Notes under the pieces: model-generated
Databases searched by the model: none
Told to the model about the DNA's origin: nothing
Seen by the model: the letters and a program-made list of their open reading frames with translations, nothing else
In this document: one piece after another, positions 9,554 through 54,701 of the stretch
How the letters are laid out: the number at the start of each line of letters is the position of its first letter
Numbering within the stretch: position 1 is the first letter of the stretch
Program-made: the position numbers and the translations under genes
Assembly: GCA_944386175.1 (NCBI GenBank)
Contig: CALXAB010000001.1
Span: 47,645 to 111,644, forward strand
Length of the DNA: 64,000 bases
Direction: 5' to 3'
DNA from: an uncultured Clostridia bacterium
Lineage (GTDB): Bacteria > Bacillota > Clostridia > TANB77 > CAG-508

Positions 9554-11422
9554 TTATTTTTTATTTATAACTACTCTATATATAATTCCTGTGTCTGTAT
9601 CTTTTTCAAATTCTATTCTATAATAACTTTCTGGTTCTATTGAACTTTTTATAAATACTATATTTTGATCTGTTACTTCATATTCTGTACCATCAAAATT
9701 TATCTCTTTTATTTTTTGAGTTCCTTCTTCTTCATTATTTGTTTGAATTACTGTCAATAACCCTCTTGTTGTTGTTCCCATAGAGTTTGTACTTTGATAT
9801 GGTTCAAATTTAGCATTAAATGCTGATATCTCTATTCCTTCTAATTCTGATATAGAACTTTCTGCTATACTATTTGCAGAATTTAAGATTGACATAGTTG
9901 GGATAAATTTTAGTAATGGATTTTCTGTCTCACTAAGTCCTAATTCTTCCATTTGCTCTTTGTTTACTTGTGTAATCCTTTCTATTATTGAACTCATTAA
10001 ATTATCTACTTGTGATTGGTCATATTCACTTAATATTATCGCATTTCTGTTTGTCAATTCTTCTATATTGGCTGTTTCTACAAAATTTACTTTATTATTT
10101 AACTGATATTTATATGCTATTTTTTGTGTTTCTTCATTATCATTTTCACTAATGTTTGTGTTATTACTTTCAATTTCGCTACTTTCAGATCCATTTTCTA
10201 TATTTGTATCTTCTTCATTAGAAGTATTAGTATTTTCAAGTTCTGCATTTATATCCTCTTCGCTATTTAATTCATTATCTGTTGATTCATTCTCATCTTG
10301 ATATGATGTTTCTATATTTTTAGTTTTTGAATTCATAATATTTAATTCTAAAGTGTAAGTCTCTTCAATATTTTGTAATGAATTTAGTCCTTTATATTCC
10401 ATAGTAAAAACTATATTCTCATTATCTTCTATATTTGCTAAAGTTATTGAATATTTTAAATTTTCATCATCACTATTTTTTTCTATAATAAATGAGTTAT
10501 CATTATCTTTTATTTCAATCTTAGATAAACTATTATTGCTTGTATATAAAATAATATCAATACTATCATTTTGGTTGTTTGTATCCTCATTAAGCTCTAC
10601 AATAATATTATCTATATCAGCTGATGTAAGATTTGTAGAAAACATTTCATTTATATTACTTAATAATTGTTGATCATTTTTCAAATTTTCTAATAAAACA
10701 ATTTCTAAATCATTTAATTCTTGGTATGTTAAAGTCAATTTGTATCCATTATCAACTTTTGAAAATTTATCATCTGATAATCTCGAATTTATTATTTCAA
10801 TATATTTATCTAACTCAACTTTTAGTTGTTCTTTGTTAATAGTTTTTGATAATTCTAAATTCCCAATATTATTTGATAAATTACCTTGTACTTGTATATC
10901 TGATATATTTTCAGCTATATATTTACTTCCAATATATTTTGTTTGCACTCCCATAGTATCTGATAATTTTCTTACTGTAAGAGGGAAAACAACATCTGGA
11001 GAATAATTTATATTTATATTTTGTTCAAAATTTTTATTTTTTAAATCTAATATACCATCAAAAGATATGTTCATTTGATTTAATATTTCATATTCACTTT
11101 GATTTGCTTCATTTGTTACATTACACGTTAAATCTCCACTATTTTCATATGGTTCACTTATTATCTTATTATAATATTCTATTATATCATTCGAAATAAA
11201 TCCCTTTTTTTCATCTATTATTTGTGAAGCATACTCAAAAAATATTTGTTTTTTACTTCTAATTAAATCTGTTGCAAAATACATATATGCAACACCTGAT
11301 AAAATTAATATTAATAGTGTAACTATTATTAAAATTATCACTATTTTTTTGCTTTTGTTTGATTTCATAAAAAACCTCCATTGGAACAACTTATTATATT
11401 TTGATAATTTTATTCTTCCCAA
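9554..11422 (-). CDS. Hypothetical membrane-anchored or secreted protein with an acidic low-complexity region
   Basis: The likely start is the internal MKSNKSKK at 11368. One N-terminal TM/signal anchor. An Asn/Glu/Ser-rich acidic stretch. No family recognised. Confidence 0.4.
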
Positions 11423-12129
11423 TTATGATAAATGTTAGCAACATCATCTAAGTCTTCTAATCTTTCAATTAGTCTTTCCATTTTTTCTACACCTTTTTCA
11501 TCAAGAGTAACTGTTGTTGTTGGCACCATTTGAACTTCTGCTTCCAAAAATTTCAATCCTGATTCTTCTAGTTTTTCACGGACAGATGTAAAATCTGATG
11601 GATCTGTTGTAATTTCATATATTTCTTCTGATGTTTGAAAATCTTCTGCCCCTGCATCTAATGCTAACATCATTAATTCCTCTTCATCCATTGAAGTTTC
11701 TGCTTTTTCTATTATTATAACTCCTTTTTTGTTAAACATATATGATACACAACCTGTTGTTCCTAAATTTCCTCCTGATTTGTCAAATGCATGTCTTACA
11801 TCTGCTGCTGTTCTGTTTTTATTGTCTGTTGCTGCTTCTACAATAACTGCTACACCATTTGGTCCATATCCTTCATATGTAATTTCTTCATAGTTTTCGT
11901 TACTTGTTGATGCTTTTTTTATTGCATTATTTATTGTGTCATTTGGCATATTTGCTGCTTTACATTTTGCAATTACATTTTTTAATTTTGAGTTTCCTGC
12001 TGGGTCTGGTCCTCCTTCTTTTACTGCTATTAATAATTCTCTTCCTAGTTTTGTGAATATTTTTCCTCTTGCTGCATCTGCTTTTCCTTTTTTGGCTTGT
12101 ATGTTGTGCCATTTTGAGTGACCACTCAT
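11410..12129 (-). CDS. yebC: YebC/PmpR family DNA-binding transcriptional regulator
   Basis: [31 protein letters not shown]... is the invariant YebC N-terminus. Size 239 aa. Confidence 0.9.
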
Positions 12130-12310
12130 TTTATTTCCTCCTTCATTTTTCTTTTATTATTAATATCTATTTTTTAGATTAAATAAACTTTCTAGGTTAT
12201 TCTATCATATTTTTTTAGTTTTGTGTAGTATTTTTTTATATTTTTACATTTACGCAGTTAATTTGCATGTTATTATTTTATTATTTAAATTGTAATTTAT
12301 CTCCTACCTA

Positions 12311-12430
12311 TTAAATGAAATGCAAAACAATAGGAATAAGCAGAATTAAAATTACACCTACTGCACATATAGCAATCACTTTTTGAAAACTTCGTTTTTG
12401 TTGTTCACTCATATTATTATACCATTTCAT
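12311..12430 (-). CDS. Small membrane protein of 39 aa (MKWYNNMSEQQKRSFQKVIAICAVGVILILLIPIVLHFI)
   Basis: Not in the ORF track because it is under 60 aa. A strong RBS aggaggtaatagtgt precedes the ATG. Single TM helix. Confidence 0.35.
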   Translation of the reverse strand: MKWYNNMSEQQKRSFQKVIAICAVGVILILLIPIVLHFI

Positions 12431-12488
12431 ACACTATTACCTCCTAATAAATCAAACAAAAAATTACTATTTTTGTTTAACTATTGCC

Positions 12489-12692
12489 TCATCTTTTTAC
12501 TAATTTCTTTACTTCTTCAAACTTTCCAAATCCCACGTCACCTAAATGATATACCGTATCTGTATTCTTAACGACGGAATTCCATCTTTCAATTATACAT
12601 TTGTTCATTTCTTCAATATTTTTAAATGGTCTATTACAGTATTTAATTATATTTGTATGATTAAAATGTGTATCAGCTATAAAATATATCAT
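12489..12692 (-). pseudogene. Truncated metallophosphoesterase (N-terminal 67 aa only)
   Basis: [12 protein letters not shown]...[10 protein letters not shown] are the calcineurin-like phosphoesterase motifs I and II. The ORF ends after 67 aa, whereas homologues are 150-180 aa. Confidence 0.5.
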
Positions 12693-12709
12693 ACACTCTC
12701 CCTTTCTGC

Positions 12710-13564
12710 TTAAACAGTTGAAACTTCTATATCTAAACTTGAAATAAATTCTTTTAGTTCTTTTATTATTTCTTCAAACTTAATATCATTTGCATATTTA
12801 TTCTTTTTAGCATATCCATTCCATAAACTTACAATTCTATCATATGAAGATATATTATCTAAAATCTGTTCATAATCCTTTAAATATCCAAGCGATTCTC
12901 TTTTATCAAATGTATTTTTTATTGATAGTTTTAAATTCTTAATATCAATATTATCTTTAAATTTGCTTAAAAACATATGTACATCATAGTAATCCTTCAT
13001 TCTGCTATTATACTATCCTCTTCTTAAAATGGTTTCAATTTTTTCAGATATGATTGTTTCAGCGTTATATGTATAAATTAATATCTTTTTATTTTCAAAT
13101 AATGATGGATAACTATACTCCAACTCTTTTGGTACAACTTTATCTCCTGTAGAAATATCAATATCTAAATTAATTTTAACATTTTCTAATTTTCCAATTA
13201 AATGATATTTATTTCCACCATATTCATCATCTTCTCTTATATCAGTTATATCAATTAATTCAAACTTCACTCCATCTTTTAAATCAATATTTAATATTTC
13301 GTTTAAAACTTTTGCCATCTGTTCTTTAGAAATATCTAAACCCTTGATTGTTGTATCCATATCTCTTGTAGTTCTATTATTGATTCCAAATAGTGCTGAT
13401 AACAGTAAACCACCTTTTAATATAAAATTTTCTTGATATTTTGAAAGTGAAATTCTTTCTAAGATTCTTTCAAACATAAATCTTTGTAACAATTCATAAT
13501 GATTTAGTTGGTATTTTTTCTCTAGTTCCTTTGATTTTTGTTTAAGTTCTTTATATTTTATCAC
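12710..13564 (-). pseudogene. AbiEii/DUF1814 nucleotidyltransferase toxin (type IV TA), interrupted by an in-frame TAG at 13013-13015
   Basis: The 183-aa and 96-aa ORFs are in the same frame, separated only by a TAG and four codons. Both halves align colinearly with the intact AbiEii at 53266-54111. Confidence 0.75.
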
Positions 13565-14153
13565 TCATCAAAACCTCCATTATAATAGTTAATTTCTCAT
13601 ATACATTAAATATTTTAGCATATTCATCTAATAGTTTTAAATTTTTATCCTTTAAATTAAAATAACTTTTCAAAATTTTATTATATAATTCTATATCGTA
13701 CTCATCTTGTTTTTTTAGCATATCACATATACATCTTTCTAAATTATATACAATTATAGGATTACCATATGGACTTGTTATAGTAATTTTACCTATATTT
13801 AACTTTTCTTTAGATACATAGTGAATTTTTACATTTTCTCTAATTCTTTTATGAGAATATGTAGTAACATCAAGTTCATATGGTACTCTTTCACTAATTC
13901 CCAGCAAGTGAAACGCAGTATTGTATGAATAAATAATATTGTTATAACGTTTTTGCAAAATATAGTATTCATCTTCAATTAATTTATTATCAATATATAA
14001 ACCTCTTGATACTCTTCTAATTATTCCTTTTTTAATTAATTCCGGAATATATATTCTTTGAATTCCGTTTTGCTCTATTTCACTAGATGTTATATAACCA
14101 TTATTTCTTTTTAAAAATTTTTCTATTTTTTTTATATTCATATTAACCTCCAT
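13551..14153 (-). CDS. AbiEi family antitoxin/transcriptional regulator
   Basis: About 200 aa, overlaps the downstream AbiEii. Homologous to the paralogue at 54108-54701 (GYITSSEIEQNGI vs GVIETYQVEDIGI; RVSRGLYI vs RVARGVYI). Confidence 0.75.
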   Translation of the reverse strand: MEVNMNIKKIEKFLKRNNGYITSSEIEQNGIQRIYIPELIKKGIIRRVSRGLYIDNKLIEDEYYILQKRYNNIIYSYNTAFHLLGISERVPYELDVTTYSHKRIRENVKIHYVSKEKLNIGKITITSPYGNPIIVYNLERCICDMLKKQDEYDIELYNKILKSYFNLKDKNLKLLDEYAKIFNVYEKLTIIMEVLMSDKI

Positions 14154-14391
14154 TACAAACGTACTACCATTTTATCATATTGTTGTACGTTTGTAAATGT
14201 TATACTTGAAATTTATTAAATTTCTTATTAACCAATATAGTTTATAGTGTATTTTTACACCATATCATATCATTTTGAATAACAATACATTTTATATCAA
14301 TAATTTACTTGTTTCAATTTTACTTATTTCTTTGTTATAAACTTACTTTGAAATTTACAAACATTTACATTTTTTAGCAAAAAAATATAGC

Positions 14392-14435
14392 CAATAGTGG
14401 AATATTTTTATTCCACTATTGACTACTTTTTTATC
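14392..14435. terminator. Perfect 12-bp-stem hairpin (CAATAGTGGAAT/ATTCCACTATTG) flanked by T-runs on both strands
   Basis: Seen directly in the sequence. It lies in a 900-bp ORF-free gap. Confidence 0.4.
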
Positions 14436-15049
14436 TATTTTTTTCATTTGTGTAGTATTTTTACAAATATTTTTTGTATTTTACTTATGTGAGTTGTACA
14501 TTTTTTATTGTTTAAATTTATTTATAATCTTAATCTCATTGATCTTTCAAAAAACATTATTAATTGTACAAAAAGCTTTGAATGAAAAAAATTCAACCTA
14601 CTTTTTTGTTACCTATATTAAATATATTTTTTTATAAAAGCCATAAAATAAATTTTATTTATAAATTCATTTTATAGCTTAATTCTAATCAATTTGCTCT
14701 AAATTAATTAATTCATTTTCTTTAAATGTTAATTTTAGTAAACATGGTGATTTTATATTTAGTATTTTTTCATTTTATAAACAAGTGTAAATGTTAAAAT
14801 AAGATTTTTAGTTTATCAAAAACATAGGAAATGGAGAAACCACAAAGTGGTTTGTCTATTGAAATATGAAAAATACATCTACAACAGTCAAATTACAGAG
14901 GTGTTTTTCTTTTGTTGGTTATTTTTGTTTGCTAATATTATTACTAATGCAATAATTAAGGCAAACGTAATGATAGTTAACCCTATTAATGAATAATATA
15001 GTTTGTATAGCACCTAAAATAATTCCAAGTTCTGTTAGAGTTCTTGATA

Positions 15050-15877
15050 TTATTCACTTATTGTATATCCCGTAGTATCTGGTTTCGTAATATCTGTATC
15101 TTTAACCACACCAAATTCATATTTATAATCTGTTGTTCTATTATTTTGATTATCTATCATCTTTATTGCTAATCCAGTATCTACATCAATAAATTTTTCT
15201 GTATTGCCATCTCTTATTAAATAACATTCTTTTCTATTAAGTTCTATTTTATCTATACTTGTTGTAATTGCCATAAATAAGTTTTCGAATATATTTTGAC
15301 CAGTAAAGTAAACAGGATTAATGGTTATATCCGTTGAATTATTCAAAGTTTTTGTTGTCCCATTATCTATTAATGCTATTTTTTCTGTTTCCGACTTATA
15401 TAATATTATGTTAATAGTATCGTTTACTTCTGAAAATATACTCATTTTTCCCAAAGTTACGCCATTCTTATTAAATGATTCTAAAATACTCATTTGCCCA
15501 TTAGAATATGTTTCTGTTTTGGTATGATAATTTGTTTGATTTTTCATATCATTTGCTCGGTTTGATAAATTCATAAGTATCATTGTTTTTCTTCCTACTA
15601 CTATAATGAATAATATAACTACAATTAGTAAAATATTTCTTAAAAGTTTAAGTTTTCTGTTAAATTTTTTAATATATTTAACTTCTCTATTATCTCTTTT
15701 TGAACTATTTAGTTTTAAATCCTTTTGCATATTTTCAAATATGTTTTTACATTCTGTACATTCATTTAAATGTTCTTCAATGTATTTGTTTGTTTCTTCA
15801 TTTGTAAGTTTTTCTATATAATTTGGCAATAAATCTTGGATAATTTTACAATCTTTTTTTTCTTTCATACTAATCAA
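15050..15877 (-). CDS. Anti-sigma factor with a zinc-finger (zf-HC2-like) N-terminus and one TM helix
   Basis: Contains HLNECTECKNIFENMQ (CxxC...H). Co-located with, and overlapping, the ECF sigma gene. A single TM helix follows the cytoplasmic domain. Confidence 0.6.
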   Translation of the reverse strand: MISMKEKKDCKIIQDLLPNYIEKLTNEETNKYIEEHLNECTECKNIFENMQKDLKLNSSKRDNREVKYIKKFNRKLKLLRNILLIVVILFIIVVGRKTMILMNLSNRANDMKNQTNYHTKTETYSNGQMSILESFNKNGVTLGKMSIFSEVNDTINIILYKSETEKIALIDNGTTKTLNNSTDITINPVYFTGQNIFENLFMAITTSIDKIELNRKECYLIRDGNTEKFIDVDTGLAIKMIDNQNNRTTDYKYEFGVVKDTDITKPDTTGYTISE

Positions 15878-16418
15878 CCTCCTTTAATTGATTTTTTCCA
15901 CGATAAAATGTTACTCTAGCCCAGTTTTCTGTTTTATTCAAAATAATTCCTATCTCTTTAAAACTTAGTTCTCCAGTTATCCTTAGATACATTACTTCTC
16001 TTGTTTTATCATCTAAAGTTTGCATTTTTTTATATAATGAAATTTTTTCATCATTTGCAATAACTTGTTCTTCTACTGTATCTAATGCTTGTACATTTAT
16101 TAAATATTTCTCTTCTGTATTTATAACTTTTTTATTCTTTCTGCATTCATCATACCATAGATTTTTAGCTATCTGACATAACCATACTGCCATTTTACAT
16201 TCGCCTTTGTATGTATTTATTTTCTTTACAGCTTTATAAAAAGTTTCTTGCGTAAGTTCTTCAGAGATATCATTATTATGACTTAAACAGAATAGATATT
16301 TGTTTACTATTTCAAAATACTCTTCGTATATTTTTTCGATATCCTGCATAACTTTTGTCCCCCTTATATATGACGTATAAAAATTCGATTCGTTACAAAG
16401 TTTGTTAAATTTTTTCAT
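15870..16418 (-). CDS. ECF-family RNA polymerase sigma-70 factor
   Basis: Region 2 (ELTQETFYKAVKKINTY) and region 4 HTH (LSFKEIGIILNKTENWARVTFYRGKNQL). The likely start is MQDIEKIYEEY at about 16349. Confidence 0.75.
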   Translation of the reverse strand: MKKFNKLCNESNFYTSYIRGTKVMQDIEKIYEEYFEIVNKYLFCLSHNNDISEELTQETFYKAVKKINTYKGECKMAVWLCQIAKNLWYDECRKNKKVINTEEKYLINVQALDTVEEQVIANDEKISLYKKMQTLDDKTREVMYLRITGELSFKEIGIILNKTENWARVTFYRGKNQLKEVD

Positions 16419-16649
16419 TTTTTTATTCTATTATATCAAAAATAGCAGATTTTTGTACTTAAAATGAAATCTCCTTATTAAACTTTTTTGTCTAATAATT
16501 TGAGTTCACTTCATTTTTTTCTGCTATTAATTAGAACTATAAATTATTATTTTGTAATTACAATATGTTGACTATTTAAACACATTTTATAACTAGTTAA
16601 GCTTACTAAATGGCTAATTTTGTATTTATTATTATATGTTTTATCTTTA

Positions 16650-17355
16650 TCACAACTCCATTTCTTGACTATCTAATATTTTTGTACATTTTTCTCTTTC
16701 TTTTTTTATTCCTTCTTGTATTGATGTTTTTATCAATGCTTTTAAATGTTCTGGTTCTGGATAATCTTTCTTATCTAAGGCTGCAAGAACAAACTTGTCT
16801 CTTATACTAAACCTTGTTATTTTTCCTTGTTCATTAGTAACTCTTAAAAGTTGATCTAATAAAATTCCAATATCCATAGGAAAACCATGCTCTCTTGAAT
16901 ATCTCTCAGCAAAAGCAAGTGTTGTTCGTGTATTACCATCTCTAAAAGGATGTACTCTCCACATTTTTACAATATTGTCTGTAAATTCTGCTGTTACTTC
17001 ATCAATATTTTTACCTGACCAATTAGAATTATTCAGTACAGTAAGAACTTTATCTAACTCTCCGCTCAATATTTTGTGGTTCAGAATATTCTAAGCTTAG
17101 ACCTGGAATAACTACTTCTTCTTTGTATATAGGAACTGTTCTAAACTCTCCTGCCCATTCAAATATATCTTCAAAAATATGTTTATGGAGTCTTTTTATA
17201 TAATCAATATCATATTTTTACTTAAATTCTTCTCCTACATCTATTAATTTTACAAAACCTATATCTTTTTCAGCACTATTTAACTCATCATATTCTTTAA
17301 TTCCTAGTTTATTTTTTAGAGTTCCGTTATCTTGAATATATGGATCTTTCATATT
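16650..17355 (-). pseudogene. Fic/DOC family protein broken by stops and frameshifts
   Basis: The Fic motif HPFRDGNTRTT lies in the 139-aa ORF. The N-terminal part (MKDPYIQDNGTLKNKLGIKEYDELNSAEK..., then ...FEWAGEFRTVPIYK...) lies at 17070-17355 in other frames with intervening stops. Confidence 0.65.
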
Positions 17356-17398
17356 TTATTACATTCCCCCATTAACAAAATTATAATTTAAAATCATC

Positions 17399-17596
17399 TT
17401 ATTTGTTCTTATTATATCTATTAATTACTCTTTCTTGCAATTCCTTTAGTTCTATTTCTCCTTTTATATATTGTTTAGCTAAAGCGATTGTTTCGTCTGT
17501 AGGTATATCCGCACCTGACATTGAAATACCTAAAGCTTTTTTTAATAGTTCTTTTCTCTCTTCAACACTTGTTTCATTAACTTTATAACTACTCAT
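17399..17596 (-). CDS. Small antitoxin-like protein resembling the VbhA family (class I Fic antitoxin)
   Basis: 65 aa, immediately upstream of the fic pseudogene. The C-terminal GEIELKELQERV resembles the VbhA GEITLDEL motif. Confidence 0.45.
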   Translation of the reverse strand: MSSYKVNETSVEERKELLKKALGISMSGADIPTDETIALAKQYIKGEIELKELQERVINRYNKNK

Positions 17597-17736
17597 ATTA
17601 ACTTTCCTTTCTCTTTCGGATATATTTTATCACATTTTATTTATTTTGTGTAGTATTTTTTCTATCTATGGTCTTACATATATTGTGCATATGTAAATCT
17701 ATCATTATCAATATTCATTATCTTTTACTTTTCTAA

Positions 17737-19991: not shown

Positions 19992-20094
19992 ATTTAATTC
20001 GACCTCTTTTCCTTATAACCAATTTATATCACAAAAAGCTAAATTTTCATAGTATTTTACCAATATTTCCAAACATATTTATCCTTAAATTTTA

Positions 20095-20345
20095 ATATAA
20101 TTTTATAAGTACACTTAGTGAACTTTTTCTTAAAAATCACTTCTTTTTTGTTCATTTAGTGAACTTTTGCACTCTAAAAAGCGTTTTTTATCCATTCACT
20201 CGGTGAATTTTTGCATCAGATCTGCATAAAATTTTTGTTTTTTTATTAACTCTTGAAGGCTTGCCCTTCAATGTGTATATGCGTTGCGTAATGCACGCTA
20301 TCCTGCCTTTAGTATTCACTTTAGTTCACCTTATCAAAATTAATT
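20095..20345. repeat. Remnant (right half) of the parS-like palindrome array family, with no recombinase attached
   Basis: About 85-90% identical to the distal 210 bp of the arrays at 36380-36890, 43200-43625 and 50940-51350, including the shared terminus ...TTAACTCTTGAAGGCTTGCCCTTCAATGTGTATA...CCTGCCTTTAGT. Confidence 0.7.
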
Positions 20346-27997: not shown

Positions 27998-29317
27998 CTA
28001 TTTTTTATTTTTTTGTAGTATTTTTATAGTTTCATCTAGCGTTATAGTATTTTGTTCCCCTGAATTCATATCTTTTAATGTTATTACATTATTTTTTATT
28101 TCTTCATCTCCTATAATTATTACATAATTTGCATTAATATTATTAGCATACTTGAATTTTTTTCCTATCTTTTGTTGTTCAATATTAATTTGTACATTTA
28201 TACCCTTTTCTCTTAGTTTTGCAGCTACTTTTGCACACATTTCACAGTCATCTGTCATTGAAATTATTAATACTTCTGCAATTGTTTCTTCAGTTGCTGA
28301 AATTATTTTATTATCTATTAGTTGAAAAAATAGCCTTGATAATCCTATTGAAATCCCTACTCCTGGCATTTTTCTATCAGTATAAAATTCTGTTAAATTG
28401 TCATATCTTCCTCCTGAACATATACTTCCTAAGTTTTTATATTGATTTAAAAATGTTTCATAAACTGTTCCTGTATAATAATCTAACCCTCTAGCAATAC
28501 TCAAATCAATTTTATAATTCTCTTCTGGAACTCCAAATATTTCAATAAATTTAGAAACTTCTTTTATTTCTTTTATACCTTCATTAAATATTTCATTATT
28601 AATTTGCATATTTTCTAATTCTTTTATTTTTTCTTCATTGTTTCCTCCTATACCCAAAAATTTAATTATAACATTAGCTTTTTTTTCTGGCATAAGTACT
28701 AATAATTCTTTTTTTACTTCTTCTTTTCCTATTTTTTCTATTTTATCAATTATTCTTAATATTTCAGATGATATATCTTCAAGTTTTAAACTTGAAAAAA
28801 GTCCATTTAATATTTTTCGATTATTTATACATATTGTAAAATCATCAAATCCTAACTTTTTAAAGGTATTATATATAATAGATGGAATTTCTGCATCATT
28901 TATTATTGACAATTCACCATCTCCAATAATATCAACATCACATTGATAAAATTCTCTATATCTTCCTCTTTGAGGTTTCTCACCACGATATACTTTTCCT
29001 ATTTGGTATCTTTTAAATGGAAAACTTAATTTATCATAGTATTCAGTTACATATTTAGCTAATGGTACTGTTAAATCAAACCTCAAAGCTAAATCTGTAT
29101 CTCCTTTTTCAAATCTATAAATTTGTTTTTCCGTTTCTCCTCCAGCTTTGGCCAGTAAAACATTTGCATCTTCTATTATTGGTGTATCTAATGGTACAAA
29201 ACCATATTGTTCGTAAGATTCTTGTATTATCGCTCTCATTTTATTAAATAATATTTGTTCATTAGGTAATAATTCCATAAATCCTGGTAAAGTTTTTGGT
29301 TGTATTTTCCCTTTCAT
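27998..29317 (-). CDS. hisS: Histidyl-tRNA synthetase, second copy in the window
   Basis: 439-aa class II aaRS. Motif 1 region ...GFVPLDTPIIE, the HisRS histidine-binding region GGRYD and a C-terminal anticodon-binding domain. Confidence 0.85.
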   Translation of the reverse strand: MKGKIQPKTLPGFMELLPNEQILFNKMRAIIQESYEQYGFVPLDTPIIEDANVLLAKAGGETEKQIYRFEKGDTDLALRFDLTVPLAKYVTEYYDKLSFPFKRYQIGKVYRGEKPQRGRYREFYQCDVDIIGDGELSIINDAEIPSIIYNTFKKLGFDDFTICINNRKILNGLFSSLKLEDISSEILRIIDKIEKIGKEEVKKELLVLMPEKKANVIIKFLGIGGNNEEKIKELENMQINNEIFNEGIKEIKEVSKFIEIFGVPEENYKIDLSIARGLDYYTGTVYETFLNQYKNLGSICSGGRYDNLTEFYTDRKMPGVGISIGLSRLFFQLIDNKIISATEETIAEVLIISMTDDCEMCAKVAAKLREKGINVQINIEQQKIGKKFKYANNINANYVIIIGDEEIKNNVITLKDMNSGEQNTITLDETIKILQKNKK

Positions 29318-36379: not shown

Positions 36380-36890
36380 ATTTCAAAAAAGAGCGACAAA
36401 AAAGCCAGCCGGCTAGCTAGACTGACTTCTTTGTCTTACATTTTTTGATAATACAATTATATTATGCTGTTCTATAAAGTTCAATTCCCGTTTTTTTCCC
36501 TTTTTTCTATTTTAATTGATAAAGCGTTGACTTTTTAGTTAGTACACTAAGTAAACTTGTGTAAAAATTTTTTTAATTATTTTTTACTTTATTATTTTTG
36601 AGTTCACTTAGTGTACTTTTTGTTTTGTATTTAAAAACCTTAGTTCACTTAGTGAATAAAAAACTAACTTTCAAGTACACTTGGTGAACTTTTTCTTAAA
36701 AATCACTTATTTTTCGTTCATTTAGTGAACTTTTGCACTCTCAAAGGCATTTTTTAGCTGTTCATTCGGTGAATTTCCGCATCAAATTTGCTTAAAATTT
36801 TTGTTCTTTTGTTAACTCTTGAAGGCTTGTCCTTCAATGTGTATAGGCGATGTGTGCACACTCGCTTTCCTGCCTTTAGTATTGTTTTTT
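36380..36890. repeat. Array of parS-like 15-bp palindromes (GTTCAC-N3-GTGAAC and variants, 6 sites) plus a conserved hairpin
   Basis: Sites TAGTACACTAAGTAAAC, GTTCACTTAGTGTAC, GTTCACTTAGTGAAT, GTACACTTGGTGAAC, GTTCATTTAGTGAAC and GTTCATTCGGTGAAT. The region is about 95% identical to 50940-51350. Confidence 0.8.
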
Positions 36891-43199: not shown

Positions 43200-43625
43200 T
43201 CTATTTTTGATATAATTCTAGTATCTAATTTTATAAGTACACTAAGTAAACTAAAAATTGTATAATTTTAAATTGCAGTTCACTTGGTGTACTAGAAAAA
43301 TATAACAAAAGTTCACTAAGTGTATTTGTAAATTTTGTTTTATTTTCACATTCACTTAGTGAACTAAATTCAAAAATATTATTCAATATCAAGTACACTT
43401 GGTGAACTTTTTCCCAAAATAAGTGAATTTTTTTAATTTTTTAATTCACCATTTTTAATTTTGAACGAAGAATAGCGGGTTTGAGCCAGTTCACCGAGTG
43501 AATTTTTACATCATATTTGCATAAAATTTTTGTTTTTTTATTAACTCTTGAAGGCTTGTCCTTCAATATGTATAGGCATTTTGTTAAGAATGCTATCCTG
43601 CCCTCATTTTCAATGAGGTATTTTG
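43200..43625. repeat. parS-like palindrome array (GTTCACTTGGTGTAC, GTTCACTAAGTGTAT, TTCACTTAGTGAAC, GTACACTTGGTGAAC, AGTTCACCGAGTGAAT)
   Basis: Same family as the 36380-36890 array. It ends with ...TTAACTCTTGAAGGCTTGTCCTTCAATATGTATAGGC. Confidence 0.75.
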
Positions 43626-50939: not shown

Positions 50940-51350
50940 GTTTTTTTCCCTTTTTTCTATTTTAATTGATAAAGTGTTGATTTTTTAGTTAGTACACTAA
51001 GTGAACTTGTGTAAAAATTTTTTTAATTATTTTTTACTTTATTATTTTTGAGTTCACTCGGTGTACTTAGTTTTTTATTATATCAATTTTTAGTACACTT
51101 AGTGAACTAATTATAAATTATTTCATAAAATTTAGTACACTTGGTGAACTTTTTCTTAAAAATTACTTATCTTTCGTTCATTTAGTGAACTTTCACACTC
51201 TAAAAGAGATTTTTTAGTCATTCATTCGGTGAATTTTTGCATCAAATTTGCTTAAAATTTTTGTTCTTTTATTAACTCTTGAAAGCTTGACCTTCAATGT
51301 GTATATGCGTTGCGTGATGCACGCTATCCTGCCTTTAGTGTTCACTTTAT
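50940..51350. repeat. parS-like palindrome array (the full copy, contiguous with the intact recombinase module)
   Basis: About 95% identical to 36380-36890 over roughly 0.9 kb when the small ORF and the recombinase 5' end are included. Confidence 0.8.
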
Positions 51351-51355
51351 ATCCT

Positions 51356-53209
51356 TTAATTAGTATTAGATTCTGATGTAGTTTTATTTACAACACCCAA
51401 GTTCTTAATACTATCTTGTAAACTTTCATCTGGAATAAAGTTTCTACAATTTTCTAATTTATAAAATTCCCCTAATTTATCTATATCTTTATATAAGAAA
51501 TAAAAATAGTTTTTTAATGCATTTTCTGTTGTTTCTAATCTAGGTCTTAATGAGTATGCTCTTTTCTTCTTATAGAAATAGTTTTCATTAAATAATTTAT
51601 ATAAATTATTTAGTTCATCACTATCTAATGTTATTTTGTGAAATCTCGTTTCTTTGAAAATATAATTTATTTTATCAATGTCTATATTTAAATCATCAAC
51701 ATATTCTCTAATGTTATTCTTGCTTATTATAGTTATTATAGATAATGTAATACTCATAATTATATAATCCATAAATTCTTTTGATAAATTCATTGTCCTA
51801 AATATTTTTATTGATCTAATATCATTGTTTTCAATCATTTTTAAAAACATTATAATGATTGGTTCACCCTTTATAAGATATGGTATAAATATTTCTTCTT
51901 CATGTATATTTTTTCTTTGCAGAAAATCATTAATACTTCTATCTGGAAATTTTTCCCTATGTTCCATTAATCTAATATTATCGTATAATTCTTCTAGTAC
52001 TCTGTACTTTTCATTTTTAGTTAAATTCTTATTTTCAATAACACATGTATATACAGATTCTAAATATCTATTACTAGTAAACATATATATAGAATCATAT
52101 TTATATAATCTACAATAGCTAAAATCTATAACATTTTCATATAGAAAAATTAAATACATATCTAATTTAATAATTCTCCATACAAGATTTATATATTCTT
52201 TTTCTTGACTTTCAGTTTGAATATATTTTATTTTATCTATTAAATTTGCAATATTTTGCATTTTATAATCATCATGAACAGGCACAAATTCATAATAAGC
52301 AAACATTGTATAAAGTTTACAATATATATTTGCAGCCTCTATATGTTTATTATATAAAATCAAATGCGAAACTATTTCATGTATAGCACTAATCAAATCA
52401 CTTCTAAAAATCATTTCTGTATAATATTCTTGAAGAATTTTTTTGTTATTAAATAAAGTTAAATCTATAAGATTCATTATGTTGTGAATATTATAATTAT
52501 AATCATTATCATTTTTTTGTATTAATACTAATGTTTGATTCTTTAAGTCTGTGATATCTTTGCACCCATGGCTATTTAGAGGAATCGCCTTTTTTATATG
52601 CTTCTTTTGTTTCTCTAAATACATACATAGTAAACTGTTTCCAAACCAATTTTTATGAGTGTAAAACCAAATCATTTTAATACACATATAAAATATAACT
52701 ACAAGAGAAAGCAAAAAATTTATTAATATTAGTATTTGACTACTGCCTTTTAGGCATTGTATAATATTTACAAATAATAGGAGAACTAAAATTATAAAAA
52801 TTTTTAGCAATGATAAAAAACTATTGTTAGGGAAAATAACATTAATATGTTTTTTTCCCAATATATAACTTTCAGACAACCCAGATAATAAAGATATTAC
52901 TGAAATTATTATCAATGTATTACTAATTTGAGCTACTAATATATCATTTGAATCAATGTTAAATTCTTTATTCAAGTCTAATATATTTTCAATTTTGTAA
53001 TCATTAATAGCATAAAAAATTACAAACATACTAAATATAACTATACTAAACATAAAAATAATCATTAAAAAATTCATAATTTTTTGTTTAACTACAAAAT
53101 ATTTTTTATTATCATATATTTTATACCATTTTAAAAATTCTTTTATTTTATAATTTTTATTTAAAATAAATCTTCTTATTTTTTTTAATTTACCATTAGA
53201 ATCTTCCAT
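51356..53209 (-). CDS. Hypothetical polytopic membrane protein of 617 aa with a large cytoplasmic C-terminal domain
   Basis: About five predicted TM helices in the first 200 aa. No recognisable domain. Adjacent to an AbiE pair. Confidence 0.4.
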   Translation of the reverse strand: MEDSNGKLKKIRRFILNKNYKIKEFLKWYKIYDNKKYFVVKQKIMNFLMIIFMFSIVIFSMFVIFYAINDYKIENILDLNKEFNIDSNDILVAQISNTLIIISVISLLSGLSESYILGKKHINVIFPNNSFLSLLKIFIILVLLLFVNIIQCLKGSSQILILINFLLSLVVIFYMCIKMIWFYTHKNWFGNSLLCMYLEKQKKHIKKAIPLNSHGCKDITDLKNQTLVLIQKNDNDYNYNIHNIMNLIDLTLFNNKKILQEYYTEMIFRSDLISAIHEIVSHLILYNKHIEAANIYCKLYTMFAYYEFVPVHDDYKMQNIANLIDKIKYIQTESQEKEYINLVWRIIKLDMYLIFLYENVIDFSYCRLYKYDSIYMFTSNRYLESVYTCVIENKNLTKNEKYRVLEELYDNIRLMEHREKFPDRSINDFLQRKNIHEEEIFIPYLIKGEPIIIMFLKMIENNDIRSIKIFRTMNLSKEFMDYIIMSITLSIITIISKNNIREYVDDLNIDIDKINYIFKETRFHKITLDSDELNNLYKLFNENYFYKKKRAYSLRPRLETTENALKNYFYFLYKDIDKLGEFYKLENCRNFIPDESLQDSIKNLGVVNKTTSESNTN

Positions 53210-53265: not shown

Positions 53266-54111
53266 TTATTTTTTTAATTCATTCTTTATTTCTTCTAATA
53301 CTCCCATCGTATCTTCATAATTAATATCTTCTGCATAACTAAATTTAGATTGATAATTCTTCCAATGCTCTTTCAGAACATCACTTTCTTTTATAACTTC
53401 CATTATCTCATTTATATTATTTAATTTATCCATTGAACCTCTATATTCAAATTTCTTCAATATAGCTTGTCCTAATAATTCTTTATTAAAATTTTGTTGT
53501 TGAGTAGTCCATAATATATAAATATCATAAAAATCTCTCGCTCTTGTAGTATCTATATTTCTTGATATAATTGTTTCAAATTTATCAGCTATTACTGTTT
53601 CCATATTATATGCTAATATTTCTATTGAACGATTTTCAAACATTAAATCGAACTTATAATTTACTTCTTTTGGAACAATTACATCTCCTGTTGTTATATC
53701 TAATTTCATTGGTACAACTAACTTATCAAATTTAGCATCTAAAGCTACTCTGTATCCTCCATATTCATCTTCTTGTCTTATTTCTTTTATACTTCTAAAT
53801 TCAAATGCTACTCCATCATCTAAATCTATATTAAAAATTTCATTTAAGATATTTTCAAGATTATCCTTTTCTAAATCAAATCCTTTTATCGTTGCATCCA
53901 TATCAAGAGTATTTCTCATGTCTATTCCAACTATTGCTGTTATTAACATTCCTCCTTTTAATACAAATTTATATTTGTATTTTGATACCGAAATTCTTTC
54001 CAATAGTCTTTCTAGCATATAGTTTTGTAAAATAATGTTTTCATTCACATCTACTTTATCTGACATATTCTTTATCCATGCTTTTAATTGTGCTCTATTT
54101 TTTGCTATCAC
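53266..54111 (-). CDS. AbiEii/DUF1814 nucleotidyltransferase toxin (type IV TA), intact
   Basis: 281 aa. The GG...D.D region (KGGMLITAIVGIDMRNTLDMD). Overlaps the upstream AbiEi gene by 4 nt. Confidence 0.8.
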   Translation of the reverse strand: MIAKNRAQLKAWIKNMSDKVDVNENIILQNYMLERLLERISVSKYKYKFVLKGGMLITAIVGIDMRNTLDMDATIKGFDLEKDNLENILNEIFNIDLDDGVAFEFRSIKEIRQEDEYGGYRVALDAKFDKLVVPMKLDITTGDVIVPKEVNYKFDLMFENRSIEILAYNMETVIADKFETIISRNIDTTRARDFYDIYILWTTQQQNFNKELLGQAILKKFEYRGSMDKLNNINEIMEVIKESDVLKEHWKNYQSKFSYAEDINYEDTMGVLEEIKNELKK

Positions 54112-54701
54112 AATAACACCTCCAAGTATTTTCTTACTTCATCTTCAATATTAAATAATTTTGCATATTTGTGTAGTTTAATAGAGTTTCTATCTTTTCT
54201 TTCAGCATATCTTTTCATCGCATCTGTAAATAAGGCAATTTCTATTTTTTTCTTATTTCTGATAATGTCACATATTGTTCTCTCTAAATCATAAACTTTA
54301 ACTTTGTTTCCATATGGTGTATTCATTTCTATTATTCCTAATTCATATAATTCATCTTTTAAATAGAAAAATTGATAGTTTCTATCTTTTAGTAATTTAG
54401 TATTATAGTAACTAGGTATAGTCAATTGATATTTTATGGGAGTTCTATCACATAAATCATGAAAATACAAAGCTGTCTCATGAGAGAATATCCCTTTTTT
54501 ACAAATTGCTTGTGTGATAAAATAATTATCTTCAAATGTATCTGCTCCAATATATACTCCTCTTGCTACTCTATCTATCAATCCCTTTTCTATCATCCTT
54601 GTTAAAATCTTATTATTTATCCCAATATCTTCTACTTGATATGTTTCAATCACTCCATTATTATTTTTTAATAATTTTTCTACTTTTTCTATATCATCCA
54701 T
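54108..54701 (-). CDS. AbiEi family antitoxin
   Basis: 197 aa with an N-terminal wHTH (RVARGVYI). Overlaps AbiEii. Confidence 0.75.
   Translation of the reverse strand: MDDIEKVEKLLKNNNGVIETYQVEDIGINNKILTRMIEKGLIDRVARGVYIGADTFEDNYFITQAICKKGIFSHETALYFHDLCDRTPIKYQLTIPSYYNTKLLKDRNYQFFYLKDELYELGIIEMNTPYGNKVKVYDLERTICDIIRNKKKIEIALFTDAMKRYAERKDRNSIKLHKYAKLFNIEDEVRKYLEVLL

Follow-up and report, generated by a model that had tools for sequence, protein, structure and literature searches.

Why should an exact 16-mer, AAAAATACTACACAAA, stand upstream of several unrelated genes within 5.4 kb? The window, that is, the whole 64-kb stretch of DNA that was analysed, contains this sequence three times, at 12220-12235 (copy 1), 14447-14462 (copy 2) and 17645-17660 (copy 3), with no further exact copy. 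All three lie on the minus strand, as a preliminary description of this DNA had reported; there the 16-mer was proposed to be a shared -35-region or operator element for an alternative sigma factor or regulator. With a 3rd-order Markov model, 0.0012 occurrences per 64 kb were expected, and the mean number of 16-mers with at least three copies per simulated window was 0.17. The three copies have in common only the 16-mer, the promoter spacer and the -10, without wider similarity, and the 16-mer has no internal symmetry. All of them fit one promoter module, that of yebC, which is seen at copy 1 as follows (all on the minus strand).

11410-12129, minus strand: yebC, YebC/PmpR/TACO1 family, 239 aa (PF20772, PF01709), the gene served by copy 1
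12199-12255, minus strand: copy 1, predicted working promoter of yebC, orthologous to promoters in relatives
12220-12235, minus strand: 16-mer of copy 1, with CTACACAAA at 12220-12228, followed by a 12-nt spacer
12206-12207, minus strand: TG of copy 1
12199-12204, minus strand: -10 hexamer of copy 1, TAGAAT

On the upstream side of copy 1, an AT-rich, UP-like tract is followed by an A-tract and then by CTACACAAA. Inside CTACACAAA, the hexamer TACACA takes the place of the -35, with exactly 17 bp separating it from an extended -10 (T-R-T-G-n-TAnAAT). The -35 and A-tract that make up the 16-mer form the upstream half of the yebC promoter. From its end 90 nt lead to the yebC ATG at 12129, which is preceded by a GGAGG ribosome-binding site; this distance had been described correctly, as had that of copy 3. 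A -10-like hexamer about 17 bp downstream had been claimed for each copy, and this held for copies 1 (TACACA-17-TAGAAT) and 3 (TACACA-17-TAAAAT), both of which carry the TG (TATGa in copy 1, TGTGa in copy 3), while it failed for copy 2. Judged by its architecture of TACACA, 17 nt and an extended -10, the promoter appears to be of the housekeeping sigma-A type. The sigma-A RNA polymerase would initiate about 7 nt after the -10, and copy 1 would drive yebC.

The link to yebC came from a genome scan with the bare 16-mer, which gave mostly single chance matches, and in which the exact 16-mer lay 67-272 nt upstream of yebC in at least 11 species. Independently of the motif, 80 loci were picked solely by YebC protein similarity (73-93% identity). 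The module was present upstream of yebC in 64 of the 80, which gave 44 distinct orthologous promoters. Among these 44, each position of CTACACAAA was 89-100% conserved, the distance from CTACACAAA to the TG was 12 nt in every one, TRTGnTAnAAT was invariant, and the positions flanking the module carried no information. The spacing of 17 bp to the -10 hexamer was likewise invariant (44/44), which bears out the earlier proposal of a -35-region promoter element. In one lineage TACACA is replaced by TTGGCA, as expected of a -35 hexamer. Across a clade of low-GC, spore-forming gut Clostridia, yebC is thus preceded by this conserved module, whose spacing does not vary. In a protein search for distant YebC orthologues, the matches listed were all at least 89% identical.

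Both strands of about 1 Mb of related sequence, all of it from yebC neighbourhoods, were scanned for the full pattern. It occurred 64 times at yebC and once elsewhere, in locus L162, and the 64-kb window held no others. The extra copy in L162 is a tandem duplicate upstream of yebC, and the two copies there bracket a histidine phosphatase-AbiEi-AbiEii cassette. Within these neighbourhoods the pattern is confined to yebC and this one duplicate; it is therefore not a regulon motif, and the idea of a signal shared by unrelated genes was not upheld. The degenerate copy that had been placed at 28004-28017, before hisS2, actually lies at 28010-28025, within the last codons of hisS (27998-29317). With one mismatch and without a correctly spaced -10, it appears to be a chance match. 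In viral contigs the motif was matched nine times, mostly in coding-like sequence and never adjoining yebC, giving no phage connection.

Gram-positive housekeeping sigma-A promoters combine an AT-rich UP element with an extended -10 (the "-16 region", TRTGnTATAAT). The yebC module is like these in its TRTG-n-TAnAAT and 17-bp spacer, in the A-tract and AT-rich tract that span about -60 to -38, and in its location 50-270 nt upstream of a gene with a ribosome-binding site. Unlike them, it has TACACA within the invariant CTACACAAA instead of TTGACA, and its conservation is far stricter than that of a usual -35. TACACA matches TTGACA at 4 of 6 positions, and a plain sigma-A -35 gives no explanation for its invariance. 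The strict keeping of the non-consensus CTACACAAA suggests that an additional factor besides sigma-A may read the site. The motif is not known to fit any of the DnaA, Rex, CRP/FNR, TnrA/GlnR, NrdR, PhoP and ComK boxes. In a literature search for CTACACAAA, the sole bacterial promoter case among the matches listed was a set of mutagenesis primers, matched on the reverse strand and irrelevant here. A generic promoter scan (74 sites vs 62 expected) is uninformative at 25% GC. Against Rfam, neither the window, at gathering thresholds, nor the long yebC leader had a match, and the matches to a 230-nt repeat were all below threshold and due to chance.

Copy 3 is an intact module in front of other genes.

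17624-17662, minus strand: copy 3, intact promoter module with A-tract, CTACACAAA (17645-17653), 12 nt, TG and TAAAAT (17624-17629)
15050-17596, minus strand: genes downstream of copy 3
17399-17596, minus strand: vbhA
17218-17352 and 16650-17069, minus strand: split fic
16372-16397, minus strand: putative ECF-type promoter TGTAAC-N16-CGTC, immediately upstream of the sigma gene (1 match vs 0.02 expected)
15870-16349/16418, minus strand: ECF sigma
15050-15877, minus strand: zf-HC2 anti-sigma

This copy was identical in 10 population contigs. It precedes vbhA, whose ATG at 17596 lies 48 nt from the end of the 16-mer and has the ribosome-binding site AAGGAAAG. Copy 3 probably drives the vbhA-fic toxin-antitoxin operon, and its transcription may continue into the ECF sigma/anti-sigma pair. 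Downstream of copy 3, the leader showed no significant similarity to yebC leaders (51 of 200 shuffles scored as well), and the descent of copy 3 is therefore traced through the ~40-nt module only. When the yebC leader or first codons were sought after copies 2 and 3 in the window, none were found. Among the population contigs, a haplotype breakpoint coincides exactly with the 5' edge of copy 3, some 10 bp ahead of the -35. As a candidate recombination site it was rejected: it is the deletion end of an HD-domain gene, of which the start codon and fragments remain.

Copy 2 had been placed before AbiEi, and its surroundings give another picture.

14618-14790, minus strand: remnant of a histidine-phosphatase gene (3' end and its terminator), upstream of copy 2
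14425-14499, minus strand: copy 2, putative stranded and decayed yebC promoter, with the 16-mer at 14447-14462
14378-14426, minus strand: intrinsic terminator (18-bp stem plus T-run; -26 kcal/mol, z = -11.3), directly after copy 2
14153-14197, minus strand: AbiEi's own predicted promoter TTTACA-17-TGaTAAAAT, lying within the inverted repeat TTTACAAACGTAC / GTACGTTTGTAA
13551-14153, minus strand: AbiEi
13013-13564 and 12710-13000, minus strand: split AbiEii, forming with AbiEi the cassette between copy 2 and copy 1

The ~50 nt 5' of the copy 2 motif are identical at 48 of 50 positions to the yebC promoter of locus L146, with the match starting at about -68, and the histidine-phosphatase gene of which copy 2 has a remnant upstream directly adjoins the yebC promoter upstream in L109 and L149. 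Copy 2 has a spacer shortened by 2 nt and has lost the TG as well as the last T of its -10, which leaves TAAAAA at the wrong spacing. The copy lies 293 nt from the AbiEi start. Since the terminator and AbiEi's own promoter and operator, the latter ~250 nt further on, come in between, copy 2 is not the AbiEi promoter. An analogous TTGACA-17-TATAAT with an inverted repeat is found in L128. AbiEi's predicted promoter (14153-14197) lies outside the 16-mer system, and given this promoter copy 2 would not be needed for AbiEi. We infer that copy 2 is a decayed relic, inactive and followed by a terminator.

The upstream flank of yebC is where neighbouring genes change. Over 36 loci, the yebC neighbours belonged to 25 protein clusters on the upstream side and 7 on the downstream side, and strain haplotypes differ in the cassette between the anti-sigma gene and yebC. 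In L110 a promoter, leader and the first 9 yebC codons lead into an island with Gabija and an ATPase, beyond which stand a second promoter and an intact yebC. In L028 a promoter, leader and 10 yebC codons run into sequence homologous to the stretch after copy 2 in the window. Stranded promoters in relatives are seen around both AbiE and Gabija cassettes. Junction positions vary from case to case; they are found just behind the -10, within yebC at codon 9-11, and 75 nt upstream of copy 1. In their spacers, copies 1 and 3 are similar to promoters from different species; neither is therefore a recent copy of the other.

We concluded that the three 16-mers are paralogous copies of one promoter. 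The best explanation as a whole, which we hold to be probable, is that they are copies of the yebC promoter stranded by cassette acquisition in its upstream flank. The 16-mer would be present three times because toxin-antitoxin cassettes accumulated in front of yebC, and this accumulation makes it an ordinary promoter with an unusual history instead of a shared regulatory signal. The flank would be a hot spot for foreign cassettes (AbiE and VbhA-Fic here, Gabija in relatives), each arriving with the yebC promoter or 5' end of its donor and anchored by homology in yebC. Each acquisition would strand the resident promoter further upstream, to be co-opted as in copy 3 or to decay as in copy 2. 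Homology-anchored insertion is our model of the acquisition mechanism.

Variable defence and toxin-antitoxin islands are known at hot spots beside core genes, where homology-facilitated illegitimate recombination acts through flanking homology. The yebC locus is like these in its single hypervariable flank, in its strain-level cassette replacement, and in its cargo of AbiE, VbhA-Fic, Gabija and Wadjet-like genes without a recombinase gene. It is unlike them in that the incoming DNA would bring a second yebC promoter, sometimes with the first 9-10 codons, so that promoters pile up in tandem. In integrative elements such as many prophages and ICEs, attP carries the end of the target gene and integration restores the gene. 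L110 and L028 are similar in that the yebC promoter, leader and first 9-10 codons are duplicated on either side of the island; they differ in their varying junctions and in that no integrase was found, and the window copies keep only a 40-70-nt promoter. TnGBS and ISLre2 elements insert 15-17 bp upstream of the -35 boxes of sigma-A promoters. The cassette boundaries here are also near a sigma-A-type promoter, the haplotype boundary at copy 3 included, but a DDE transposase and terminal repeats are lacking, and that boundary is explained by a deletion.

These comparisons bear on whether the 16-mer or the promoter module is itself an attachment or crossover site, with the copies being att-type direct repeats left by integration. 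The bracketing of cassettes by copies in the window (3/2/1), L162 and L110 would fit this, as would the L110 and L028 junctions, which agree to within 6 nt in their position in yebC (codon 9-11), and the tandem GG[AC][AG]CAAT repeats after these junctions, also present in the long yebC leader and resembling integrase arm sites. The breakpoint at copy 3 would count too, were it not the end of a deletion. However, neither the ORFs at 12.1-18.8 kb of the window nor the L110 island include an integrase or transposase between or adjoining the copies, the crossover is not constant, L175 has the long leader with the repeats and no island within 10 kb, and the motif is kept in island-free genomes, which points to promoter function. 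We therefore regard an att site as quite improbable. A wider version, that the yebC promoter and 5' end are a dedicated landing pad for site-specific cassette integration with promoter capture, is slightly less so but unlikely as a whole. Non-autonomous defence or toxin-antitoxin cassettes may integrate at yebC codon 9-11 or at the promoter and bring their own replacement for promoter, leader and first codons; the GG[AC][AG]CAAT repeats may act as recombinase arm sites, and each integration may hand the resident housekeeping promoter to new cargo. A factor, perhaps YebC, could moreover use CTACACAAA as its operator and so couple cargo expression to translation status. If true, this would be an undescribed promoter-capturing system of island accretion.

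Autoregulated ECF sigma promoters have an AAC-containing -35 and a CGT-containing -10. The ECF sigma/anti-sigma pair downstream of copy 3, between copies 2 and 3, and the sharp bounds of the motif at -35 could suggest that the 16-mer is the -35 of this or another alternative sigma, or a dispersed regulon motif. Both ECF elements are absent from the three copies, whose -10 is of the housekeeping TRTGnTAnAAT form, and are present in the TGTAAC-N16-CGTC site of the sigma gene itself (16372-16397), which is likely the target of the local ECF sigma and unrelated to the 16-mer. The module is also kept at yebC in loci without such a pair in the regions examined, and in the ~1 Mb of yebC neighbourhoods it is absent from unlinked genes. 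The alternative sigma factor, which had been proposed at first, and the regulon are thus very improbable. Still less probability, next to none, falls to a chance low-complexity AT-rich word or an interspersed repeat such as a MITE. The genome has 25% GC, and another A-rich 17-mer, AATAATAAAAGAAAAAT, does recur three times by chance; it is unrelated to the 16-mer, because two of its copies sit in Lys-rich coding sequence. The expected count and the keeping of the motif across species at one orthologous position refute this reading, and the similarity does not extend as in a mobile repeat.

A further possibility would add to the promoter reading without replacing it, namely that CTACACAAA is an operator overlapping the -35 for a dedicated regulator, possibly through YebC autoregulation, with vbhA-fic under the same control. 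The non-consensus -35 region is invariant over the 44 promoters, while AbiEi promoters of the same genomes use TTGACA or TTTACA, and autoregulation typically involves a motif found at one gene only. Some promoters from several lineages, copy 2 included, have a dyad TACAAA-N5-TTTGTA situated 5-7 nt 5' of the motif; it is almost confined to yebC promoters and may take part in many lineages. The TTGGCA lineage has a dyad TTTGCC-N6-GGCAAA over the -35. The upstream dyad is, however, missing from copy 1 and many orthologues, its distance to the motif varies, and the 16-mer itself lacks symmetry. An 8-bp site, SSTAGACR, has been quoted for a YebC-family protein (PMC5561223) and resembles [G]CTACACA with one mismatch, a weak resemblance, and recent work treats YebC as a translation factor, not a transcription factor (PMC12234827, PMC11990639). 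We hold the operator only tentatively, as a doubtful but real possibility.

The practical value of these results is modest. They define the native yebC promoter for an uncultured clade of gut Clostridia, and its constrained, non-consensus -35 region points to a further layer of control of yebC, whose product is at present considered a translation factor for proline-rich sequences. They also advise caution in genome scans, as short exact repeats before unrelated genes can stem from descent: here the promoter of a core gene was probably duplicated and stranded by cassette insertion, a history in which no shared regulator takes part. Should stranded promoters prove to be a general pattern, this would show how toxin-antitoxin and defence cassettes gain expression from a housekeeping promoter, and islands in this clade would have a hot spot in the upstream flank of yebC.

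The 16-mer TTTGTGTAGTATTTTT (minus strand AAAAATACTACACAAA) occurred as exact matches solely at 12220-12235, 14447-14462 and 17645-17660 of the 64-kb window (copies 1, 2 and 3), confirming the threefold recurrence reported in the preliminary description. The window has 25% GC and an excess of T on the plus strand; a third-order Markov model gave 0.0012 expected occurrences against the three observed, and in simulated windows the mean number of 16-mers present at least three times was 0.17. The degenerate copy proposed as a further site was dropped: the single-mismatch copy at 28010-28025 was treated as chance because it lies at the end of the histidyl-tRNA synthetase gene (27998-29317), inside the final codons, and no -10 stands at the right distance from it.

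Copies 1 and 3 shared a common layout on the minus strand, composed of an A-tract, CTACACAAA, 12 nt, and T-R-T-G-n-TAGAAT or TAAAAT, which places a 17-bp spacer between TACACA and an extended -10. The yebC start was located 90 nt past the end of copy 1, and the vbhA start 48 nt past the end of copy 3. In copy 2, the spacer was 2 nt shorter, the TG and the final T of the -10 were missing, and an 18-bp hairpin with a T-run followed directly (-26 kcal/mol, z = -11.3). The AbiEi start was 293 nt beyond copy 2. The suggestion that each copy stands before a gene start with a -10 therefore held for copies 1 and 3, but not for copy 2. AbiEi and the ECF sigma gene, the latter located between copies 3 and 2, have promoters of their own:

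14153-14197, minus strand, AbiEi promoter TTTACA-17-TGaTAAAAT in an inverted repeat
16372-16397, minus strand, ECF-type promoter TGTAAC-N16-CGTC directly before the ECF sigma gene, found once in the whole window where 0.02 matches were expected

The likely start of the ECF sigma gene is the ATG at 16349. The inverted repeat embedding the AbiEi promoter is 12-13 bp long, with arms TTTACAAACGTAC / GTACGTTTGTAA; in the related locus L128 (4830-4890), the AbiEi promoter was TTGACA-17-TATAAT and the arms were TTGACAACCATACC / GGTATGGTTGTCAA. The position of the repeat is kept while its sequence differs, as would be expected of an antitoxin operator.

The exact word was then scanned in one genome per species, which returned mostly single chance matches. 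In at least 11 low-GC Clostridia species, the 16-mer was found ahead of a yebC orthologue (67-99% amino-acid identity of YebC) at a distance of 67-272 nt, and in every case the same extended -10 came next. To avoid motif-search bias, 80 metagenomic loci were picked by YebC protein alone (73-93% identity), and the module was present upstream of yebC in 64 of them. Among 44 distinct promoters from the module-bearing loci, CTACACAAA showed per-position conservation of 89-100%, the A-tract was kept, and the three bases preceding CTACACAAA (ATA in the window) varied freely. TG was at the 12-nt distance in 44/44 promoters, T-R-T-G-n-T-A-n-A-A-T was invariant, and positions further out carried no information. 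TACACA was replaced at the identical place by TTGGCA in one lineage, and other lineages had CTACCAAAA or ATACACAAA. This pattern resembles the behaviour of a -35 element in a housekeeping extended -10 promoter. The upstream AT pattern (A-rich, T-rich, then the A-tract) is presumably comparable to an UP element, and the yebC module appears to agree in most features with a Gram-positive housekeeping extended -10 promoter carrying a UP-like tract; TACACA, which agrees with TTGACA at 4 of 6 positions, is the putative -35 hexamer. The 16-mer is thus part of a conserved promoter module belonging to yebC. No description of this yebC promoter was found in the literature searched.

The 16-mer or the full pattern was also observed before unrelated genes in distant Firmicutes and one viral contig (L099, L039, L113 and L214), including a Ruminococcus gene of unknown function, a pyruvate formate-lyase-like gene of Bacillus kwashiorkori and a rapZ-like gene of Gemella. 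The distance from the 16-mer to the -10 was sigma-A-like in these cases, which are either chance or reuse of a good promoter sequence, the numbers being too small to separate the two. Viral contigs showed neither enrichment nor a link to yebC.

Other identities of the 16-mer had been considered, including an element for an alternative sigma factor or for a regulator shared by several genes. Neither agreed with the results. The -10 is of the housekeeping extended type, and the ECF sigma gene has its separate, classical promoter; neither of the ECF promoter elements is present in the three copies. When both strands of the 80 loci and the window (~1 Mb) were scanned, yebC promoters accounted for 64 occurrences of the full pattern and copies 1 and 3 of the window for two more, which left a single other occurrence, in L162; the bare core CTACACAA was otherwise confined to scattered positions, most of them within coding-like sequence. 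A dispersed operator or regulon motif was rejected on this basis. The tests for a mobile repeat also failed, and the flanks of the three copies could not be aligned outside the motif, save for their A-richness.

CTACACAAA was kept far more strictly than a usual sigma-A -35, and neighbouring promoters had TTGACA or TTTACA. A dyad, TACAAA-N5-TTTGTA, was present just upstream of the motif in many lineages, and in the TTGGCA lineage a dyad spans the -35. It is plausible from these patterns that a factor binds at this promoter, and YebC itself would be an obvious candidate. However, YebC is described as a translation factor in recent papers; the sole published site of the YebC family that we found, SSTAGACR, as quoted in PMC5561223, resembles the motif only loosely.

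The start of yebC itself varied among relatives. One extra C was present right after codon 2 in L124, L149, L146, L197, L079 and L110 (~935-965), giving ATG-AGT/TCT/AGC-C-GGx versus ATG-TCA-GGA, with lineage-dependent serine codons and the remainder of the gene intact; yebC of the window has no extra C. The zero frame reads AUG-Ser-CGG, and CGG is very rare in these genomes. The extra C might be due to repeated inactivation or to errors in assembly; alternatively, translation of this translation-factor gene might begin with a programmed +1 frameshift. No paper connecting YebC with programmed frameshifting was found.

Pfam supported AbiEi, a truncated AbiEii, the ECF sigma factor, a zf-HC2 anti-sigma factor, a Fic fragment, VbhA and HisRS. 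The spoIIIA operon comes after yebC, which identifies the organism as a spore former within the Clostridia; its closest named relative among the matches listed was Clostridium sp. CAG:440. Several island genes in the regions 12489-13564 and 16650-17352 looked degraded. AbiEii was split (183 aa and 96 aa), a 67-aa ORF at 12489-12692 looked like a phosphoesterase N-terminus without a Pfam match, and fic was split into 44 + 139 aa, where other strains have 100 + 139 aa. The minus strand at 53266-54701 encodes another AbiEi/AbiEii pair (197 aa and 281 aa), which appears intact and had ~68% DNA identity to the pair beside yebC. The window also contained four copies, 73-88% identical, of a ~230-nt intergenic repeat (20086-20323, 36674-36883, 43357-43602 and 51100-51360, minus-strand register). 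This repeat carried a GAAGG-N-CCTTC hairpin together with several short dyads of the form TTCAC...GTGAA; it had ordinary fold stability (z = -0.75), no copy in the yebC loci of relatives and no Rfam family match.

The origin of the extra copies was traced in related loci. In L162, the locus of the sole extra full-pattern match, one promoter copy stands before a histidine-phosphatase gene, AbiEi and AbiEii, and another, whose spacer is almost the same, stands before yebC. Upstream of copy 2 in the window, we found a remnant of the histidine-phosphatase gene and its terminator, and the same gene was directly upstream of the yebC promoter in L109 and L149. The 50 nt preceding copy 2 matched the yebC promoter of L146 at 48/50 positions. 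The spacers of copies 1 and 3 were akin to promoters of different species, so these copies are not recent mutual duplicates and look imported. The window thus holds three paralogous promoter copies, one of them decayed. Across 36 loci, the upstream neighbours of yebC formed 25 protein clusters, versus 7 for the downstream gene, and at least two unrelated versions of the segment from the anti-sigma gene to yebC occurred within the species.

Comparison of 12298-15003 with L122, L204, L206 and L208 showed strain-level haplotypes, in which the histidine-phosphatase remnant, copy 2 and the AbiE segment were swapped for cytidylate-kinase-like, abhydrolase and Rce1-like genes with either DUF1706 plus flavodoxin or MerR. 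Some strains have an HD-domain gene of ~750 bp immediately ahead of copy 3 on its upstream side, which is deleted in the window (17662-17701 vs L206:3356-4106). Judged by sequence features, putative defence genes were directly upstream of yebC in L110 (1509-7136; an ATPase + RloB-like pair, and a Gabija-like pair of a 659-aa OLD-type ATPase and a 567-aa UvrD-like helicase) and in L079 (232-5465; a Wadjet-like set including a 1116-aa SMC-like protein).

L110 carried a promoter copy, the yebC leader and the first 9 yebC codons, then a 6-kb island with the predicted Gabija and ATPase/RloB-like pairs, and past it another promoter with a long leader ahead of intact yebC. In L028, a promoter, leader and 10 yebC codons were joined to a homologue of the sequence after copy 2. 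Site-specific integration might explain these two loci, since their junctions are no more than 6 nt apart and both are followed by tandem GG[AC][AG]CAAT repeats that are also present in the long yebC leader. However, no recombinase gene was found and the junction positions differ between cases; on the present evidence, an att site fails as well.

The long leader, of 230-290 nt with 2-4 tandem GG[AC][AG]CAAT (or GCGTAAT) repeats followed by a conserved CGTTTC...GAACCTCGAAA block, was found between promoter and yebC in a subset of species, at L008, L063, L079, L104, L110, L146, L175, L190 and L201-L203. The repeat variant was uniform within a locus and different between species, and the module was also behind the truncated yebC' in L110 (1026-1060) and L028 (6388-6410). 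It had no Rfam match, and it may provide a series of binding sites for a protein, either in DNA or in the RNA leader.

We propose that the sigma-A holoenzyme would use the module, with yebC expressed from copy 1, copy 3 co-opted for vbhA-fic and possibly reading on towards the sigma and anti-sigma genes, and copy 2 silent. With lower confidence, incoming cassettes might bring along the yebC promoter or 5' end of a donor through recombination anchored in yebC, the other end being joined illegitimately either just past the promoter already there or within the first codons, so that promoters would pile up with the newest adjoining yebC. We concluded that the feature is a promoter specific to its lineage and under unusual constraint, present in triplicate probably as a result of island growth.
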